From NCBI RefSeq assembly GCF_001677475.2, contig NZ_CP015229.1: 64,000 nt of DNA. One strand, written 5' to 3'. Each line of letters begins with the position of its first letter. The first letter of the stretch is position 1. Made by a program: the position numbers and the translations under genes. Origin of the DNA: Escherichia coli (GTDB lineage Bacteria; Pseudomonadota; Gammaproteobacteria; Enterobacterales; Enterobacteriaceae). The notes beneath the pieces were generated by a model. That model had not been told where the DNA came from and did no database searches. It was given only the letters and a program-made list of their open reading frames with translations. Below are positions 24,336 to 35,148 of this stretch, in pieces.

Positions 24336-26429
24336 ATGAAAGCAACAGAAGCCCGTTTACTCGATTTTTTAAAACGTTCGCAGCAGTTTGTTATTCCCAT
24401 TTATCAACGCACCTATTCATGGACAGAGCAACAATGTCGGCAACTTTGGGACGACATCATTCGTGCCGGAAAGCGTGACGATATATCCGCGCATTTTATC
24501 GGTTCGGTTGTTTATATAGAGCAGGGGTTGTATCAGGTTTCCGGTATTTCTCCGTTGCTGGTCATTGATGGTCAACAGCGGCTGACGACCGCAATGTTGC
24601 TGATTGAGGCTTTATCGCGCCATCTTGGCGAAGAAGAAGTTTTTGATGGCTTTTCGGCAATGAAATTGCGTAATTATTATTTACTCAATCCTTATGAGTC
24701 CGGTGAGAAAGGATTTAAATTACTGCTGACCGAGACCGATAAAGACAGTTTGCTGGTGTTAATAAAACAAAGACCAATGCCAGAAAACTATTCCCATCGA
24801 ATAATGGAAAATTTTAGTTTCTTTGATGAGCAAATTACCAAACTCGGTGATGACTTGATCCCCTTATGTCGTGGGTTAGCAAAGCTATTAATTGTCGATG
24901 TGGCGCTTAATCGTGGTCAGGATAATCCGCAACTGATTTTTGAAAGTATGAACTCCACCGGTAAGGCGTTAAGTCAGGCCGATCTGGTGCGCAATTTTAT
25001 TCTGATGGGCCTCGAACCAGAGCATCAAACACGGTTGTATGAAGATCACTGGCGTCCAATGGAAATCGCTTTTGGTCAGCAAGGTTACAGCGAATATTTT
25101 GACAGTTTTATGCGTCATTATCTGACGGTAAAAACGGGGGAGATCCCTCGGACAGATGAAGTCTATGAGGCATTTAAACTACATGCCCGCAGCCAGAGTG
25201 TTGCTGAAAAAGGCGTAGATCGGCTGGTTGAAGATATACACATCTACGCGGAGTATTACTGTGCAATGGCATTGGGTAAGGAAAGTGACAAATCGCTTGC
25301 CACGGCTTTTCAGGATTTGCGCGAGTTAAAGGTCGATGTGGCGTATCCTTTCTTACTGGCGCTTTATCATGACTATAAAAATGGCGTTTTGTCTCACGAA
25401 GATTTCCTGAGCATAATTCGTTTAATTGAATCTTATGTTTTCCGCCGTGCAGTGTGTGCAATTCCGACGAATTCTTTGAACAAGACGTTTGCCACTTTTT
25501 ATAAGATCATTAATAAAGAAAATTATCTGGAAAGCATTCAGGTGCATTTTATGAACCTGCCTTCGTATCGTCGTTTCCCCAACGATGATGAATTTAAACG
25601 GGAATTAAAAGTTCGCGATCTCTATAACTTCCGCAGTCGCAGCTACTGGTTACGACGACTAGAAAACGATAAACGCAGAGAGCGCGTGGAAGAGTTTACG
25701 ATTGAGCACATTATGCCGCAGAACGAAAACCTGTCGGCTAAATGGCGCGAAGAGCTGGGAAGCGACTGGCAGCGTATTCATAAAGAATTGTTGCATACGT
25801 TGGGGAATCTCACTTTAACGCGCTATAACTCCCGCTACAGTGACAGACCTTTCGCGGAAAAACGCGATATTGAAGACGGCTTTAAGCATAGCCCGCTCTA
25901 TTTGAATATCGGTCTTGGGCAGTGCGAAAAATGGGATGAAGCCGCCATTCGCGCCCGAGCCGATCGTCTGGCCGATCTCGCGGTTCAGGTCTGGCAAGCG
26001 CCTTCTCTTCCTGAAGAGGTATTAGCTGTTTATCGGGGTCAGCCGGAGAACAAAACCAGTTACAGCCTGAGTGATTATCCTTTCCTTGCTGATGGTTCGC
26101 ATAGCCGGGTGTTATTCGATCATCTTCGCGATGAAGTTATGCGCCTGGACGCAGGGATCACACAGGAAGTTTTAAAGCTGTATATTGCGTTTAAAGCGGA
26201 AACGAATTTTGTTGATGTTGTGCCGCAAAAAAGCCGACTGCGATTGTCGCTTAATATGCAGTTTCATGAACTGGTCGATCCGAAAGGTATTGCCAAAGAT
26301 GTGACAAATGTTGGGCGCTGGGGCAATGGTGATGTGGAAATTGGTTTCAGCGACCTCGCACAACTTCCTTACATTATGGGATTAATTCGTCAGGCATTTG
26401 AAAAACAGATGGAGAGTGCGTTGGTATAA
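24336..26429 (+). CDS. GmrSD-family (DUF262 + DUF1524/His-Me finger) putative type IV modification-dependent restriction endonuclease
   Basis: 697-aa ORF; N-terminal DUF262 signature (PIYQRTYSW...LLVIDGQQRLTT), C-terminal DUF1524-like region (FTIEHIMPQN...LGNLTLTRYN). Confidence 0.7.
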   Translation: MKATEARLLDFLKRSQQFVIPIYQRTYSWTEQQCRQLWDDIIRAGKRDDISAHFIGSVVYIEQGLYQVSGISPLLVIDGQQRLTTAMLLIEALSRHLGEEEVFDGFSAMKLRNYYLLNPYESGEKGFKLLLTETDKDSLLVLIKQRPMPENYSHRIMENFSFFDEQITKLGDDLIPLCRGLAKLLIVDVALNRGQDNPQLIFESMNSTGKALSQADLVRNFILMGLEPEHQTRLYEDHWRPMEIAFGQQGYSEYFDSFMRHYLTVKTGEIPRTDEVYEAFKLHARSQSVAEKGVDRLVEDIHIYAEYYCAMALGKESDKSLATAFQDLRELKVDVAYPFLLALYHDYKNGVLSHEDFLSIIRLIESYVFRRAVCAIPTNSLNKTFATFYKIINKENYLESIQVHFMNLPSYRRFPNDDEFKRELKVRDLYNFRSRSYWLRRLENDKRRERVEEFTIEHIMPQNENLSAKWREELGSDWQRIHKELLHTLGNLTLTRYNSRYSDRPFAEKRDIEDGFKHSPLYLNIGLGQCEKWDEAAIRARADRLADLAVQVWQAPSLPEEVLAVYRGQPENKTSYSLSDYPFLADGSHSRVLFDHLRDEVMRLDAGITQEVLKLYIAFKAETNFVDVVPQKSRLRLSLNMQFHELVDPKGIAKDVTNVGRWGNGDVEIGFSDLAQLPYIMGLIRQAFEKQMESALV

Positions 26430-26475: not shown

Positions 26476-26817
26476 TCAGGCGACTTTCTGTTTACCGGCA
26501 ATCACCCCAATAAATTCCTGCACCTGCTTTTGTTTACGTGCCGACAGCTTGCACACCTGGCGCAGTGACTGCATCAGTTCGCTCTCTTCGGGGGCGGGTG
26601 GTTGGGTGGTGAGGATAATACAGCCTTCCATCACTTTGACATCTACCGCCGTGCCAGTGGCAAAACCGGCGGCTTCCAGCCACTGACCTTTCAGGGTGAT
26701 GGCGGGAATGCGGCTGTAATCCGGGTAGCGACTCGCATAACTCACGGTTAATTGACGGTTATTTGCTGGGGAGACTTCTGCTTCGAACGGTTGTGCAATA
26801 GAATGCGTGTCAGTCAT
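26476..26817 (-). CDS. symE: SOS-induced toxin-like protein SymE
   Basis: Translation from ATG 26817, [34 protein letters not shown]... (113 aa), recognised as SymE; the track ORF extends upstream to 26874. Confidence 0.85.
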
Positions 26818-26885
26818 GATTACTATTCCTTTGAAATAGGGATTGTGATTAGCGGTGCGGGTGTGTTGGCGCACATCCGCACCGC
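26800..26885 (+). ncRNA. symR: Probable SymR antisense sRNA (approximate placement)
   Basis: Placed by homology logic only: SymR is described as antisense to the symE 5' end. A 9-bp perfect hairpin (gcggtgcgg/ccgcaccgc, about 26852-26884) lies at the expected 3' end. Ends not determined. Confidence 0.3.
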
Positions 26886-27037: not shown

Positions 27038-28798
27038 TTAGTTTATCGCCGCGTCAGTGAGTGCGTCTGCAAGGTGCAGTTGGGTTTGCTGGGCGGATTG
27101 GATATGATTCTTTAATTCTTCACATAGTTTATAAAAAATATGTAGTTTACTCATTATTTTTTTTGCTTCTGAGCTAGGAGGAATAGCAACAGGACAACCT
27201 CTGAGCTGGGTTTTATTAATAGAGGCTAAATTAGTGGTTTGCTTACTTGCGTTAGCAAAATATTGTCTTGAGAATGGGCTATTCATATATGTTTCTAACC
27301 AATATGGATCAACATCTTGCCCTATATTTCGTCCTTTGAATACATGGTTTTGATTTGCTATATACCAGTCATGACACCATACTGTAGTTCTCCCGACTGT
27401 ATCCCAGTCGCCGCCTTCTGTGATCAATAAATCTCCCTTGACTACTTGATATTTTTCTTTTTCCTCAATAGGGATTTCAATCTGTTTAATTTCCGTAAGA
27501 TCAAGATATCCGCGTTGGACGTTTGCCACACGTAAATAAGGAACTTTTACCAAAGTTCTATTTGATAAATTTCTTCCTTTAGTGATACCACTTTGAATAT
27601 CAATAATATCTTCAAATAAACACCACTCCCACCCTTCCGGCAGTTCAAATGGTTTTTCCTCATCGCTAATTGGCGGCAACGGTTTTTGTTTTTTTATTTT
27701 TCCTTTTTTCACCAGTTGAGCTTTTTCCTGCGCAATTCGTTTGAGCAGTTCAGAGGCAGGTTCGTCATTCGGATCCTGCGGCACAAGTTTACCCATTACG
27801 GCCAGTTGCAGAATGGTCTGTTTTAATGCATCCACGCTGGCTTCGGTGGTAAATAGTGTGTCGAAATGCTCGCTAATACGCGCCCAGTTTTCAGCCAGTT
27901 CCTCGGCGTTTTGGCTGTCTGTAAGCGTTCCCAACAGGGTTTCAACCAGTTGCTGATGTGCGTCCAGACTGGCCAAGGATTGCTGTTCCAGTTGGTCGCA
28001 AAGGGACATGAGCTCCTGTACTTTGGATACAATACGTATTTGTTCTTGGTAAGGTGGTAAAATAACAGGGATCTCTTTTAACTTAGACGCTTTTATTCCT
28101 GTTGCGGTCATGCCTGTAGATTTGTCACTTAGTTGTGACTGGAAGGGGATCGCCAGGATTTGAATAAGCATAAAAGGGCTTATCTCTGGAGTATGCCATT
28201 GAAAACAGATAGAACGTTGAGCAAGAGCGAACTTTCCGTCTAAATCAATAATCGCTGCATTCCCCAGTGGTGCTTCAGTCGTGAATAAAATATCACCACA
28301 TTTAGGAAAGCCTCTTGTCATCCATGATATGTAATCTTCTTCAGATATGAACTCTTCTGGATTGAGATCAATATAGCCCTTTCTGATATTTTTTGCTGTT
28401 ATAAGCCTTATACCATTTTCTTTTTTATGTGGTGTTTTTCCTCGGTAATCGATGAATTTAGCTAAATTACCAAGTCTTATCCATGACCACTTTTCGGGGG
28501 TATCGATATAATATTCATTTCCATGGATATTAGTGCTTGCTGTGGTTTTCATACCATTATTGCGCGCTAATTCTTTTTTCCGTTCTTCATTACGCTTCAG
28601 CAGCTCCGACGCTGGTTCATCATTCGGATCCTGCGGCACTAGTTTACCGCGCACCGCCAGTTCCAGAATCAGCTCACGCAATTTCTTAATGCCATACAAA
28701 TCAATTTTACCGGAACTGCCGCGCCCGGCGGTGGAACGGGTTTGCAACGCCGAGGTCCAGGTTGCCATATGATCAACGATCAGCTTTTCCACACTCAT
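27038..28798 (-). CDS. hsdS: Type I restriction-modification specificity subunit HsdS
   Basis: 586-aa ORF with two target-recognition domains and a duplicated conserved spacer (LVPQDPNDEPASELLKR at both about aa 45 and about aa 335); ATG overlaps the hsdM stop (ATGA). Confidence 0.85.
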   Translation of the reverse strand: MSVEKLIVDHMATWTSALQTRSTAGRGSSGKIDLYGIKKLRELILELAVRGKLVPQDPNDEPASELLKRNEERKKELARNNGMKTTASTNIHGNEYYIDTPEKWSWIRLGNLAKFIDYRGKTPHKKENGIRLITAKNIRKGYIDLNPEEFISEEDYISWMTRGFPKCGDILFTTEAPLGNAAIIDLDGKFALAQRSICFQWHTPEISPFMLIQILAIPFQSQLSDKSTGMTATGIKASKLKEIPVILPPYQEQIRIVSKVQELMSLCDQLEQQSLASLDAHQQLVETLLGTLTDSQNAEELAENWARISEHFDTLFTTEASVDALKQTILQLAVMGKLVPQDPNDEPASELLKRIAQEKAQLVKKGKIKKQKPLPPISDEEKPFELPEGWEWCLFEDIIDIQSGITKGRNLSNRTLVKVPYLRVANVQRGYLDLTEIKQIEIPIEEKEKYQVVKGDLLITEGGDWDTVGRTTVWCHDWYIANQNHVFKGRNIGQDVDPYWLETYMNSPFSRQYFANASKQTTNLASINKTQLRGCPVAIPPSSEAKKIMSKLHIFYKLCEELKNHIQSAQQTQLHLADALTDAAIN

Positions 28799-30333: not shown

Positions 30334-32766
30334 TTAAGCAGAGCGGGGCGGTAATTGGTAGATTTCGTTTTCCAGCTCGCTGAGCGCCTGATTATACCCG
30401 TTACGGTCGCCAAATCCGGTTTTAATAATCTCCGGTAAGGTGCCCATGCTGTCGAATGGTTTAAGTTTCAGCACCTGAATACTTTCGATCTCCTGTACGC
30501 CCGCATCGGCGTATTTATCCAGCAGATTATCGAGCACGGCTTGCGCTGCTTCAGAGTATTTTGTGAAGTAGTTCCGCTTGCGCACGTTCTCGGCGCGCTC
30601 TTTGCGGGTTAACGGCGGCTGACCATACACTACGTGGCAAAGCATGTCGAACGGGTCGAGATCTTTACCGACTTCTTCTGCCAGCACTTCCCAGATGATC
30701 CCCTGTTGCTCCAGCTCGTGAATGATCGCTTCTTTGCGATCGGCGTCCTGCCACTTGCGGGTAAAGTCATCCAGCGAGGCATATTCTTTGAGCAGTGTTT
30801 TACGGGTGTAATCTTTAAAGGATTCGGTAACCAGTTTTCCGTCGGCATCGTAATACTGAACGCGCTGTGCAATAACGCCCACCGCCACGCCATTGACGTG
30901 AAACTTGCGGATTTTCTTCTCGTCTTCTTCCGGAAGTGGGCCAACATCATCGGTATCGGTAACCTGGTATGGCGGCGCAGGCGGTTCATCAACGCCTGTC
31001 ACCTGCTCTTCGTCATGTTCGCTGATTTCTTCGAGTTTCTCTTCAAAATCAGATTCTGGATCGGCGATATCCTCTGGTGTGGTATCCATGACTTTTTCGG
31101 GAATGCCATCGAAACGCTCATCGGCAAACAGTTCGGTGGCTTTTTTAAAGTCGAGGATGGTAAACCAGAGTTTGCCGTAACGTTCGTCGATGCGTGTACC
31201 ACGACCGATAATCTGCTTGAATTTGGTCATCGACTGGATGTTCTGATCCAGTACTACCAGTTTGCAGGTTTTAGCATCCACACCGGTGGTCATCAGCTCT
31301 GAAGTGGTCGCGATAACCGGGTACGGTTTTTTCGGGTTGATGAAGTTATCCAACTGAGCTTTGCCAATTTCATCATCACCGGTAATTTTCATGACGTATT
31401 TGTCGTTCTTTTTCACCTGCTCCGGGTTGAGATTAACCAGGGCGCGGCGCATACGTTCTGCATGATCGATGTCGTTACAGAAGACGATGGTTTTATCCAT
31501 CGGGTTGGTGCGCTTGAGGTAGTCGGTAATGGTTCTGGCAACCAGTTCTGTGCGTTCGTCGATTACCATTGTGCGATCGAAATCTTTCTGGTTATAGATA
31601 CGATCGTCGATCACTTCGCCGTTTAAGTCAGTTTGCCCTTTGGTTGGGCGCCAGCCTTGCAGATCAACATCAATATCAACACGGACAACTTTATAAGGGG
31701 CGAGGAAGCCGTCTTCGATCCCTTCTTTTAGCGAGTAGACGTAAACCGGATCGCCGAAGTAATCCGTGCTGGAGACTTCATGGGTCTCTTTTGGCGTGGC
31801 GGTTAAGCCAATTTGGGTGGCGGAGCTGAAATAATCAAGGATCTCTCGCCAGGCGCTGTCTTCGGATGCGCTGCCGCGATGGCATTCGTCGATCACGATC
31901 AGATCGAAGAAATCTGGTGCGACTTGTTTAAACGCTTTTTGGTCTTCCTCCGGGCCAGTTATAGCCTGATAGAGTGCGAGGTGTATTTCATAAGCGGGAT
32001 CAATGGTGCGCCCGCTGACTTTGGTCATTGCCGTACCAAATGGCTGGAAATCATTATTTTTGGTTTGGTCGACCAGAATGTTGCGATCGGCAAGGAACAG
32101 AATGCGTTTTTTATTTTTTGATTTCCACAGGCGCCAGATGATCTGGAATGCGGTATAGGTTTTCCCTGTTCCGGTCGCCATTACCAGCAGAACACGGTTT
32201 TGCCCGTTGGAGACGGCTTCTATGGTTTTGTTGATTGCCTGAAGCTGGTAATAACGTGGCGATTTACCGCTGCCATCGTCGTAATAGTCCTGAGTAATCA
32301 CCGGAAGCTGAGCTTGTGTGTATCCTTTCCAGAGGCAGAATTTTTGCCAGAGTTCAGCGGGGGAGGGGAAGTCATCCAGCGTTATTTGCTTTTCAAGGCA
32401 TTCACCTTCGGCTGCGGTAGCATCGCGGAAGATAAAGCCATCACCGTTGGTGGCAAAAACAAAAGGAACGTCCAGCAGGCGCGCGTATTCAATGCCCTGT
32501 TGCATCCCTTTGCCAATTTCATGTTTGTTGGCTTTTGCTTCAATCACGGCTAAGGGAATGCCTGGTTTGTGATACAGCACGATGTCAGCAGATTTTACCG
32601 TTCTGCGTGCCGCAACTTTACCACGTACGATGACTTTACCGTCCCGGAGTTTGACCTCCTGTCTGATTTGCGTTGTGTTGTCCCAGCCTGCATTGAGAAT
32701 GGCTGGCATAACGCATTTGGTAATGATGTCTGCTTCCGTCAGGTTACTTAGGTTCAGTTCCGCCAT
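30334..32766 (-). CDS. hsdR: Type I restriction enzyme endonuclease/helicase subunit HsdR, short form (type IB/EcoAI-like)
   Basis: 810-aa ORF; PD-(D/E)XK N-terminus, SF2 helicase motifs (MATGTGKT; DECHR). The 810-aa length is well below the roughly 1170 aa I recall for EcoKI HsdR and matches what I recall for type IB. Confidence 0.85.
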
Positions 32767-32906
32767 GGGGTGTTCTCATCTAAATGCGATGCGCAAATTC
32801 TACACAGAAAAATAGATGAATTCATCTGTTCAAAGAGTATTATCAGCGTTAAGTCACTGTTTTAAAGGTATTCTTGAGTTTCATCAATAGTAGGATAAGG
32901 ATTCAT

Positions 32907-33875
32907 ATGGAGAATGTTCGGTTCTTGCAAGGAGTGAAACAATATTTTTGTACTAAGGCATTAGATGTCATTCTGCTAATTTATCTACTCCTTGGTTTTA
33001 TACTTCTCCCTTATAAATATCTGTGGAAAGATATTATTTTATCTCTGTGCTTTGTTGGTATTCTTCTTTATGCATTAGTGGAAGAAAATCGCATTACAGA
33101 ATATATGGGGTATTTTGTCAAGTTCAGTAATAAAAACAGTTTGAATAGTTGTGCTGCCTGGTGTTCACTTATTGCATGGTTTATATTTTTGTTTTTTGTG
33201 CTTTCAATTAATATTTTTCCAGTCAGTGTCTCTGTATACGTTTTTAGTGCTTTTTCAGTATTTGTTTTTCTGGGAGGTGTTTTTATTATATTAGAGTTGG
33301 AATTTAAAAATAATAAAAAATTAATGATTATTAGGTCTATGACTTTAGCTGTCATACCAATTATATATTTATTCTCAAGTAGTTTTTCTTCCAGTTTATT
33401 TTTAAGTTTGAGTAATCTAAATATCACACTATCACCATGGGTTGAGTATTTCTGGAAAGGGATGGCTTTTTTGTTTCTTTTCTTCATGTTAATGCAACTT
33501 ATTATCTATTTTACTTTTTTAACTCTGTGGGCTAAATTAAGTGTGTACAGGTTGTTTATACTTGCCGGAGCATTTATAGCATCTACTATTTTAGTGGTTT
33601 TTGCTTCAAAAAACGTAGAGAGTATTTCGTACTACGTTTTAAAAAGTACTATAGATTTTGAATGGCGCAGTCAGGTTAAATGTGGACAGTTGAATATTTC
33701 ACATCCGGATGAAAGGTATTTCGGGTTTAATACCGATAAATATACTGTATTTTATTCCAATAGAGAGGGTAAATGGGGGTTCAATGAGTTGAAATGTAAG
33801 AAAGGTTCTGACAGGAGAGATGCATATTCCATTGAGAATGTCTCAGAATATAACGTGCCAGGATGGCTGAAATAA
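32907..33875 (+). CDS. Uncharacterized AT-rich polytopic membrane protein (about 6-7 TM) with about 85-aa soluble C-terminal domain; sits where K-12 has mrr
   Basis: Track ORF 32874..33875 starts at TTG; preferred start ATG 32907 with AAGGA SD 5 nt upstream. Strongly hydrophobic N-terminal 240 aa, hydrophilic C-terminus; visibly AT-rich; no recognisable catalytic motif. Confidence 0.6.
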   Translation: MENVRFLQGVKQYFCTKALDVILLIYLLLGFILLPYKYLWKDIILSLCFVGILLYALVEENRITEYMGYFVKFSNKNSLNSCAAWCSLIAWFIFLFFVLSINIFPVSVSVYVFSAFSVFVFLGGVFIILELEFKNNKKLMIIRSMTLAVIPIIYLFSSSFSSSLFLSLSNLNITLSPWVEYFWKGMAFLFLFFMLMQLIIYFTFLTLWAKLSVYRLFILAGAFIASTILVVFASKNVESISYYVLKSTIDFEWRSQVKCGQLNISHPDERYFGFNTDKYTVFYSNREGKWGFNELKCKKGSDRRDAYSIENVSEYNVPGWLK

Positions 33876-33914
33876 GTTATCTTTATAATTAAATCGTAAA
33901 GGTTCTGGACATAA

Positions 33915-34106
33915 ATGAGCATGGTTAAACATAAACGGGGCACACTCTACACACTTGATGTGCAGCAAGAAGCTGAACTCAAGGCTTTGGTTAATAAATC
34001 CGACGATTATATTGATTACAGCGATATTCCTGCGTCTGGTAGCGATGCATGGGCTGACGCCAAACGCAGCAATTTTTTGCCAAATCCAGGTATTCACGCG
34101 CAATAA
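33915..34106 (+). CDS. Small BrnA/DUF4415-like protein (possibly truncated antitoxin-like remnant)
   Basis: 63-aa ORF 40 nt after the membrane-protein stop; motif IDYSDIPASGSDAWADAKR resembles the DUF4415/BrnA signature; no ribbon-helix-helix tail and no BrnT-like partner seen. Confidence 0.4.
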   Translation: MSMVKHKRGTLYTLDVQQEAELKALVNKSDDYIDYSDIPASGSDAWADAKRSNFLPNPGIHAQ

Positions 34107-34185
34107 AACTTAGCGGAGGGGAGCTCGTCGTTCTGCTTCCCCCTCACTGCTAAATGGGGCATTGAACTGCTTTACACTCAACCTT

Positions 34186-35148
34186 TCACGCAGACTTCCT
34201 CAACCCCGCAAACGCCGCCCGAATCTCATCCTCCGGCAGCTGAATCCCGATAAACACCATCGTGCTATGCGGTTTTTCATCGCCCCACGGGCGGTCCCAG
34301 TCGGCGCTGTAGAGGCGCTGGACGCCCTGGAACAGCAGGCGGTTAGGTTCGCCGTCAATCCATAGCATCCCTTTGTAACGCAGCAGTTTATCCGCCGACT
34401 CCAGCAGCAGGTTTTCCATCACCCGGGAAACTTCGCTGATATCTACCGGGTAATCCAGTTCCACCACAATCGACGAAATATCGTTTTGTTTATCCGCGAT
34501 AAAGTGAAAACGTGGCTTGGTGCTGACGACGTTCTCTTCCAGCATAAAACCGTTGGTGTTGAACAGCAGGCCCAGGTCGATGTCGCCGTGGGTGACGGTG
34601 TAGACCGGTGCGCGGGCGTTGATGCGCGCCAGGCGTTCACGCAGTTTCTCTGCTTCGCCTGCGACGTCGGTTTTAGTCAGCAGAATACGGTCGGCGTAGC
34701 CAACCTGGGACTGGGCGATGGTGAACTGGTTCATCTGCTCATCGGCATGTACCGCATCCACCAGCGCAATCACGCCGTCCAGCAGGTAGCGCTGGCATAA
34801 AATCTCATGGGAGAAAAAGGTCTGAATAATCGGGCCGGGATCGGCCATGCCGGTGCATTCAATGACCAGACGGTCGAACTGAATATTGCCCTTGTCGAGA
34901 TTATCCAGCAGGTCGAGTAGCGCGTCTTCCAGCTCGTTGGAGCGCGAACAGCAGATGCAGCCGTTGGTCAGCGTTTTGATCTGCGTGGCGCGGTCGCCAA
35001 TCAGTTGATCATCAACGGAGACTTCGCCGAATTCGTTTTCAATCACGGCAATCTTGTAGCCGTGTTGTTCGTTAAGAATATGGCGCAACAGGGTGGTTTT
35101 GCCCGCGCCTAAAAAACCGGTGAGTAGGGTAACTGCAATCGGGTTCAT
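34186..35148 (-). CDS. yjiA: CobW/P47K-family GTPase YjiA
   Basis: Translation from ATG 35148, MNPIAVTLLTGFLGAGKTTLLRHILNEQHGYKIAVIENEFGE... (P-loop GTPase). Confidence 0.9.
   Translation of the reverse strand: MNPIAVTLLTGFLGAGKTTLLRHILNEQHGYKIAVIENEFGEVSVDDQLIGDRATQIKTLTNGCICCSRSNELEDALLDLLDNLDKGNIQFDRLVIECTGMADPGPIIQTFFSHEILCQRYLLDGVIALVDAVHADEQMNQFTIAQSQVGYADRILLTKTDVAGEAEKLRERLARINARAPVYTVTHGDIDLGLLFNTNGFMLEENVVSTKPRFHFIADKQNDISSIVVELDYPVDISEVSRVMENLLLESADKLLRYKGMLWIDGEPNRLLFQGVQRLYSADWDRPWGDEKPHSTMVFIGIQLPEDEIRAAFAGLRKSA

Follow-up and report, generated by a model that had tools for sequence, protein, structure and literature searches.

An AT-rich, seven-helix membrane-protein gene of a small orphan Enterobacterales family recurs as a one-gene insertion among defence hotspots, including the hsdR-yjiA slot of Escherichia coli

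We describe an orphan gene, referred to here as X, in a 64,000-nucleotide stretch of Escherichia coli DNA (NCBI RefSeq assembly GCF_001677475.2, contig NZ_CP015229.1; the whole of this stretch is called the window), in which X lies between hsdR and yjiA in the immigration control region (ICR), divergent from the former and convergent with the latter. X is a genuine stand-alone gene, its family is small, orphan and confined to Enterobacterales, and it travels between defence hotspots as one AT-rich gene, these being both ends of the ICR, islands at tRNA-Leu with a P4-type integrase, and neighbourhoods of Zorya, Mrr, SymE or type I restriction-modification (R-M) genes. The 63-aa open reading frame (ORF) that follows it is a pseudogene remnant of brnA that is unrelated to X, and no functional antitoxin gene. 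When taken together with the predicted architecture of the encoded protein, these contexts make X a candidate anti-phage factor that may act at the cell envelope, and we weigh this reading below against the alternatives.

That the slot between hsdR and yjiA holds a divergent, AT-rich membrane-protein gene had been proposed in an earlier reading made from the sequence alone (the sequence-only reading), and the ORF call, the base composition and the NCBIfam assignments of the flanking genes all agree with this, with a GC content of 0.27-0.32 over positions 32800-33700 vs ~0.47-0.58 in the flanks. The frame encodes 322 aa from an ATG that follows the Shine-Dalgarno sequence AAGGA by 7 nt (a TTG-extended form begins at 32874), and the same 322-aa coding sequence (CDS) is annotated by RefSeq in E. 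coli AH65, the RefSeq names in this species being "hypothetical protein" for X and "antitoxin" for the 63-aa ORF. By our own estimate, a 322-codon open frame would arise by chance at this composition with a probability of ~1e-11, and a chance ORF is ruled out by purifying selection and by conservation across genera. The ratio of nonsynonymous to synonymous substitution rates (dN/dS) of X is 0.18-0.33, which indicates purifying selection, yet is far looser than the value for hsdR (0-0.02). X is present in 441 of the 5426 complete E. coli genomes (~8%) and full-length in 409 of these 441, with ~7% of the carriers harboring a truncated gene and some copies being interrupted by insertion sequences (IS). 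Two allele classes are found in the species, at ~98% and ~94% nucleotide identity to the window. For comparison, hsdR of the EcoAI type is present in 975 E. coli genomes, ~45% of which also carry X.

Throughout the family, X is a solitary AT-rich islet, with a GC content of 0.29-0.42 vs 0.51-0.58 in most of the host genomes, and approximately ten of its twelve distinct contexts are defence or mobile islands, this being a raw count. In Salmonella enterica, X occupies the same slot as in the window, divergent from a type IB hsdR, while in Enterobacter asburiae (L028, 8001-8948) and Atlantibacter subterranea (L032, 8001-8915) it is divergent from yjiN, the opposite anchor of the ICR, the YjiN proteins of these genomes being 79% identical to that of the window. 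X occupies both anchor-proximal slots of the ICR, in different genera. Among catalogued defence islands of E. coli, the ICR is hotspot 36, while the leuX/lptG site, which is occupied more often than any other, is hotspot 37 (PMC12707154; preprint 10.1101/2022.06.09.495481). The second of these sites also has an X-bearing counterpart: a P4-type integrase gene at tRNA-Leu(CAA), beside lptFG, is followed after 50 nt by X in Pectobacterium, in Lonsdalea, in two Enterobacter-like genomes and in several contigs from metagenomes, this site being the equivalent of hotspot 37. The neighbours of X at these loci include HigBA, primase, AlpA, TIR, OLD-like and RloB/AAA_21 genes.

Other contexts are of a similar kind. 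The gene order is int'-X-Mrr-SymE-hsdSMR-ZorA in Kosakonia sacchari and ZorD-?-?-X-Fic in Pantoea coffeiphila, and in Chimaeribacter a primase island is followed by X-SymE. The sole match in the viral collection, an IMG/VR contig, carries X after an integrase fragment and beside a P4-like satellite with psu, a repressor gene and the alpha primase gene; the defence hotspot of P4 is located between psu and int, abutting int (PMC9122126). A gene for a phosphorothioated-DNA (PT-DNA) restriction endonuclease is also found among the defence neighbours of X. In Proteus penneri, a truncated X lies near a tRNA-Leu gene, with type I hsdR and hsdS ~2 kb downstream and, on its other side, a low-GC cluster containing a gene for a GT2 glycosyltransferase and one for a protein with multiple transmembrane (TM) helices that appears Wzx-like by eye. 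We note separately that in Kosakonia and Chimaeribacter (L040, L042) a SymE-family toxin gene is found at a distance of one or two genes from X, and that another is found in the E. coli ICR beside hsdS (26476-26874).

When 1.84 billion cluster representatives were searched exhaustively with a HMMER profile, 41 clusters were returned, all of them ~310-330 aa in length or fragments, and a further profile search, this one word-indexed, extended the set by Kosakonia and Chimaeribacter only. Among one genome for each of 100,044 species, we found 12 X loci, 11 of which are in Enterobacterales. The twelfth, on contig JAEWTL010000091.1 of a metagenome-assembled genome (MAG) labelled "Bacillota", carries hsdM, hsdR and X at 100%, 99.9% and 97% identity to the window, respectively, and is almost certainly E. 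coli contamination binned into that MAG. Salmonella enterica commonly carries X (1094 sequences in one cluster), and the E. coli and Salmonella proteins are only 41% identical vs 81-97% for the proteins of neighbouring genes, which fits either fast evolution or exchange of the cassette.

Homology to a housekeeping transporter or to any other known family, the outcome against which the sequence-only reading had staked its proposal, did not emerge from Pfam, NCBIfam, PADLOC, PHROGs, sequence profiles of the PDB or Foldseek. Specifically, neither X nor any of 25 aligned family members matched Pfam, and X itself matched neither NCBIfam nor PHROGs. The PDB profiles yielded no relative, their one weak match, to the MIR domain of Pmt3 (E=0.042 over 26 residues), being treated as chance, and Foldseek against AFDB50 returned uncharacterised proteins only, namely family members in Enterobacterales and matches in Pseudomonas and Burkholderia at a TM-score of ~0.5. 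We have also considered X as a housekeeping transporter or core membrane protein, and reject this on account of its patchy distribution and lack of homology. As far as we could find, X is undescribed in the two papers and the preprint cited above (PMC12707154, PMC9122126, 10.1101/2022.06.09.495481), and literature searches by accession number were likewise empty.

Hydropathy analysis and an AlphaFold2 model (mean predicted local distance difference test, pLDDT, 86; predicted template-modelling score, pTM, 0.75) agree on seven TM helices followed by a beta domain of ~85 aa, the model consisting of seven long TM helices, a short connecting helix and a six-stranded beta meander. This is in agreement with the six to seven helices and the C-terminal domain without a recognised motif that had been expected from the sequence, the domain having no match in Pfam or NCBIfam. 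Following the positive-inside rule, with 12 lysine and arginine residues in the predicted cytoplasmic segments vs 3 in the short periplasmic loops, we infer that the N-terminus is cytoplasmic and that both the most conserved loop and the C-terminal domain would face the periplasm. The latter contains the invariant residues C259 and C297, which are probably joined by a disulfide bond, and the motifs EW...CG...YFGFNTDKYTVY...WGF.EL.C.

Conservation is unevenly distributed over this predicted topology, being highest in loop 5 (0.64) and the C-terminal domain (0.60) and lowest in the predicted cytoplasmic loops (0.39-0.46), which are at most 24 residues long. Homologues at 30-40% identity keep the invariant motifs in common, and the invariant residues are limited to F, P, E, W and C, that is, mostly aromatic residues, cysteine and proline. 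Variation within E. coli is also unevenly spread: 6 of the 31 amino-acid differences between the two alleles fall within residues 255-270 (33669-33716), where ~1.5 would be expected, and members of the wider family also vary in this hairpin of the C-terminal domain. Residues 255-270 may form a specificity loop, and the allelic clustering at this hairpin, together with the strong divergence between E. coli and Salmonella, hints at, and is consistent with, a recognition surface under diversifying pressure.

We now turn to the 63-aa ORF, which had been described as BrnA-like and as lying about 40 nt after X, and the spacing proves to be 39 nt. In local BLASTP, its identity to the N-terminal ~55 residues of intact BrnA proteins, which are 100 aa long and come from Pseudocitrobacter, Salmonella, Kluyvera, Kosakonia, Klebsiella and others, reaches 75%. 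When aligned with six intact BrnA proteins it shows 46-62% identity across the alignment, with 27 invariant columns over residues 1-62, and it retains the conserved N-terminal motif MSMVK...AELKAL...IDYSDIPA...W. The ORF therefore resembles BrnA (PF14384, formerly DUF4415; part of the BrnT/BrnA type II toxin-antitoxin, TA, system) over the N-terminal ~55 residues and in its position and orientation beside yjiA, but fails three defining features of that family, in that it lacks the C-terminal ~45 residues, an upstream overlapping brnT and a score with the Pfam profile. As to the first of these, protein and DNA alignments show that homology to brnA is lost after codon ~54, the remaining ~45 codons having been deleted or replaced, and the missing residues are those that carry the conserved SVRID...GYQTRLNAILREAM segment, which we take to be the ribbon-helix-helix region. 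As to the second, DNA homology to intact brnTA loci begins ~10-25 nt before the ATG of the relic, within the tail of brnT, the rest of which is absent, and the Shine-Dalgarno region of the relic is degraded (DNA alignment, blastn). As to the third, no Pfam match was obtained even at E<=10, with the BrnA hidden Markov model (HMM) included, nor was there an NCBIfam match.

Intact, overlapping brnT-brnA genes are found directly beside yjiA in Pseudocitrobacter (L024) and Salmonella (L026), in the orientation of the relic and preceded by mrr, and X is absent from both of these loci. From the extent of the relic and from these intact loci it therefore follows that the ancestral order was mrr-brnT-brnA-yjiA, and that mrr, brnT and the 3' half of brnA gave way to the X cassette. 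The GC-rich hairpin downstream of yjiA (Table 1) sits where this 3' half was lost; it is part of the X cassette and not common to the K-12 or O157 loci, and, although it is not called by a simple terminator scan, it is probably the yjiA terminator. The brnAT system is itself listed among the TA systems of the ICR in an EcoSal Plus review (PMC12707154). Two IS1-bounded deletions are also of interest with respect to the relic: in E. coli 23AR0998 (L014), X has been lost together with hsdRMS, in E. coli XYEH3314 (L013) the entire symE-hsd-X block is gone, and in both cases just the distal part of the brnA relic remains beside yjiA.

Homology between the window and the O157/LF82-type locus ends at 32777 and restarts at 34194 (blastn), and because of these breaks the interval singled out by the sequence-only reading corresponds almost exactly to one replaceable cassette. 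The order hsdR-mrr-yjiA is indeed that seen in K-12, as had been stated there, while a DUF262/HNH GmrSD-like nuclease gene lies at the identical position in the two EcoAI-type genomes without X that we examined (O157:H7 and LF82). Three alternative occupants of the slot are thus seen, mrr, a GmrSD-like nuclease gene and X, which, with the location of X homologues elsewhere mostly in defence or mobile islands, bears out the description of this slot as a defence hotspot. The region between hsdR and X is conserved with the Salmonella type IB locus as far as ~32880 (blastn, 76% identity over 32006-32880). A simple scan of this intergenic region found no consensus sigma-70 site on the + strand upstream of X, the performance of this promoter and terminator scan being no better than on shuffled controls, and Rfam gave no match over 32000-35000. 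The yjiA gene of the window matches the NCBIfam GTPase model with 680 bits.

Table 1. Features of the X locus, in positions of the window
Feature	Positions	Strand	Evidence and remarks
X, CDS for a 322-aa AT-rich inner-membrane protein with 7 predicted TM helices, orphan family	32907-33875	+	ORF, GC, hydropathy, AlphaFold2, dN/dS
Most conserved loop of X, codons 167-184, SNLxIxxSPWxExxWK, between TM5 and TM6, predicted periplasmic	33405-33458	+	alignments, conservation 0.64
C-terminal domain of X, codons 236-322, one helix and a six-stranded beta meander, predicted periplasmic	33612-33872	+	
63-aa ORF, 5' relic of a brnA antitoxin gene	33915-34106	+	BLASTP, alignments, blastn; 39 nt after X
GC-rich hairpin and U-tract (UUUUAUU) just downstream of the yjiA stop	34103-34151	-	folding -20.4 kcal/mol, z = -2.05
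Replaceable ICR cassette: X, brnA relic and terminator-like hairpin	32778-34193		blastn breakpoints (loci L015, L016, L039), annotated loci
hsdR/X intergenic region between the divergent genes	32767-32906		presumed promoters of both
hsdR	30334-32766	-	EcoAI/FtnUII family, NCBIfam 1194 bits

Further features of this ICR deserve mention in their own right. An intact gene for a 697-aa GmrSD-type type IV restriction enzyme (24336-26429, +), with GmrSD_N, GmrSD_C and a C-terminal DUF5655 domain, lies at the position of mcrBC, and its counterpart is annotated as split in several complete E. coli genomes, AH65 among them, into a DUF262 pseudogene and a 387-aa piece. A second AT-rich dip, with a GC content of 0.35-0.37 at 28150-28600, lies within hsdS (27038-28798, -), and presumably corresponds to a variable target-recognition domain.

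Comparison with known systems places X between several groups without assigning it to any of them. Like X, Mrr and the GmrSD-like (DUF262/HNH) type IV enzymes are single-gene cassettes that occupy the same slot, divergent from hsdR and with identical breakpoints; however, they are soluble, modification-dependent nucleases, whereas X is polytopic in the membrane, shows no homology to these enzymes and contains neither a nuclease nor a nucleotide-binding motif. A second point of comparison is provided by inner-membrane exclusion proteins, such as Imm of T4, SieA of P22 and gp15 of HK97 among phages, and TraS of F and Eex of SXT among conjugative elements. The logic proposed here for X would be like theirs, a small, single-gene block at the inner membrane without a cytoplasmic sensor, but these proteins have one to four TM helices compared to the seven TM helices and beta domain of X, with no similarity in sequence or fold, and they are borne by phages and conjugative elements whereas X is cargo of chromosomal islands and satellites. 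Integral membrane proteins of defence islands are a third group, and include RexB, KwaA of Kiwa, ZorAB of Zorya, the TM effectors of retrons and of cyclic-oligonucleotide-based anti-phage signalling systems (CBASS), and the Rst hydrolase-3TM and RT-nitrilase-TM systems of P4 hotspots (PMC9122126). These work with partner proteins, in contrast to X, which has neither a conserved partner nor a PADLOC match and the conserved surface of which is predicted to be periplasmic. Finally, enzymes acting on surface glycans (GT-C, Wzy, WaaL and Oac/GtrC-like proteins) would be recognised by a profile match, at least 10 TM helices, conserved catalytic acidic or basic residues in periplasmic loops and a polysaccharide gene context, whereas X has seven helices, no Pfam or NCBIfam match and invariant residues of F, P, E, W and C only, and a glycan cluster adjoins it only in Proteus penneri, where the copy is truncated.

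Because its family recurs in anti-phage defence islands, X is a reasonable defence candidate, and we consider that some defence role, of whatever kind, could as easily turn out to be true as false. Action at the envelope would be the most economical form for such a role to take, since X lacks both a cytoplasmic domain and a conserved partner, and the prediction for its conserved surface is that it lies in the periplasm. The combined statement, that X may be a single-gene factor against phage or mobile DNA acting at the envelope, is the reading that we favour, although only tentatively and with somewhat less than even confidence. Mechanistically, the periplasmic module of X would recognise, or get in the way of, some part of the apparatus by which an incoming phage delivers its genome at the inner membrane, without infection being sensed by X in the cytoplasm, and the outcome would be an exclusion-like block to entry. 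As a less likely outcome, X would perceive a perturbation of the envelope and trigger membrane permeabilisation. A more far-reaching proposal, which we advance with greater reserve, is that X could found a new family of single-gene envelope immunity proteins, in which a seven-TM bundle and a disulfide-bonded periplasmic beta domain of novel fold would perceive the phage genome-delivery machinery, and which would be distributed as a one-gene cassette across ICR, leuX and integrase-adjacent satellite hotspots while being too small a family for defence-island screens that depend on family size.

Several observations weigh against a defence function at the envelope. Classical superinfection and entry-exclusion genes are carried by the element that they exclude; X, by comparison, gave no tblastn match in 50,697 phage records and is effectively absent from the plasmid collection. 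In one Pantoea clade (P. agglomerans, P. conspicua and Pantoea sp. Eser, L035-L037, with the metagenomic contig L022), X is flanked by a yecA-like gene and uhpABC and defence genes are missing from its neighbourhood, which is the one clear exception among its contexts; the sequence-only reading had held that a presence at unrelated non-defence loci would count against it, and this applies to the Pantoea clade, while the other contexts are mostly defence or mobile islands. No conserved partner or sensor gene shared across the X contexts was found. The 5027 defence-protein models of PADLOC-DB v2.0.0 (2023) gave no match at E<=1 to X, to the 63-aa ORF or to ten divergent X homologues, and the family is thus absent from the systems and candidates modelled there. 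Both the topology and the disulfide bond of X are predictions. In addition, the cargo of the ICR is not exclusively defensive, and includes an aldehyde dehydrogenase gene and mdtM (PMC12707154).

The most probable of the rival explanations, albeit unlikely, is that X is an accessory envelope protein with a role other than in phage defence, such as immunity to a bacteriocin or to a toxin of contact-dependent inhibition (CDI) or of the type VI secretion system (T6SS) that acts in the periplasm or on the membrane, or the modification or polymerisation of a surface polysaccharide, and has hitch-hiked in islands. Genes such as wzx, wzy and immunity genes are often AT-rich and fast-diverging, as X is to a marked degree, and the predicted periplasmic position of its conserved face would suit such a function. 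This explanation is kept alive by the non-defence locus in Pantoea, by the truncated Proteus penneri copy beside a low-GC glycosyltransferase and flippase-like cluster, and by the known non-defence cargo of the ICR (PMC12707154). However, X matches no glycan-modifying, acyltransferase, Wzy, ligase or immunity family in Pfam or NCBIfam, it has no invariant His/Asp/Arg triad of the type typical of enzymes, no toxin gene is adjacent to it, and the polysaccharide context is only one of ~12, and one in which the copy of X is truncated. We regard as less probable still the proposal of the sequence-only reading that X is an abortive-infection (Abi) or toxin-like effector, which would lie inert in the inner membrane and, on sensing infection, depolarise or permeabilise the cell such that it dies before phage release. 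The defence-island contexts of X would be identical under this proposal to those behind the reading that we favour, membrane proteins are common among Abi effectors (discussion of PMC9122126), and the ~7% of truncated copies and the IS-interrupted ones could reflect a cost of carriage, but 93% of carriers have X intact. The proposal has gained no direct backing, and we disfavour it because X appears to lack any cytoplasmic element for sensing: there is no cytoplasmic domain, the loops on that side of the membrane are short and less conserved than the rest of the protein, conservation lies on the predicted periplasmic face, and no context provides a conserved sensor partner. X is also not paired with an antitoxin, since what remains of brnA is a relic that does not accompany X outside E. 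coli.

The same evidence bears on the remaining two alternatives. Cooperation of X with the type IB (EcoAI-family) restriction enzyme encoded next to it, for instance as a membrane partner, might be suggested by the divergent arrangement of X and type IB hsdR in both E. coli and Salmonella, with a conserved intergenic region, and by the presence of type I hsd genes near X in Kosakonia and Proteus. Against this, about half of the EcoAI-type loci of E. coli lack X (975 genomes with hsdR, 441 with X), type I systems are missing from the surroundings of many X loci, and the hsd genes that accompany X in Kosakonia and Proteus are of type I families other than this one, so that we consider such coupling very improbable. 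The proposal that X and the 63-aa ORF form a single two-gene module of the TA type, as they had been grouped in the sequence-only reading, is effectively refuted. It could draw on their common strand and 39-nt spacing, on the name "antitoxin" given to the small ORF by the Prokaryotic Genome Annotation Pipeline (PGAP), and on their co-occurrence in E. coli, where 512 genomes match the whole cassette and 510 match the relic region; however, they co-occur within the species because both are inherited in one cassette. Only the 5' 55% of brnA remains, with the ribbon-helix-helix domain gone, the Shine-Dalgarno sequence decayed and brnT deleted, an intact brnT-brnA pair holds the same spot beside yjiA where X is absent, and the small ORF has a dN/dS of 0.4-0.6. 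Furthermore, none of the X loci examined outside E. coli (Salmonella, Pectobacterium, Kosakonia, Chimaeribacter and the Pantoea-type contig L022) has this ORF beside X, and its place after X in E. coli is thus positional, as a relic of brnTA.

With respect to the locus itself, the brnA result clarifies its history, and shows the PGAP name "antitoxin" to be the annotation of a pseudogene fragment. X is a solid candidate, yet one of many uncharacterised defence-island genes, and without a phage phenotype it would be one more uncharacterised accessory membrane protein. If X is a defence gene, on the other hand, a periplasm-facing protein of new fold would join the short list of single-gene envelope phage blockers, and the slot between hsdR and yjiA would be one that exchanges nucleases for a membrane protein.

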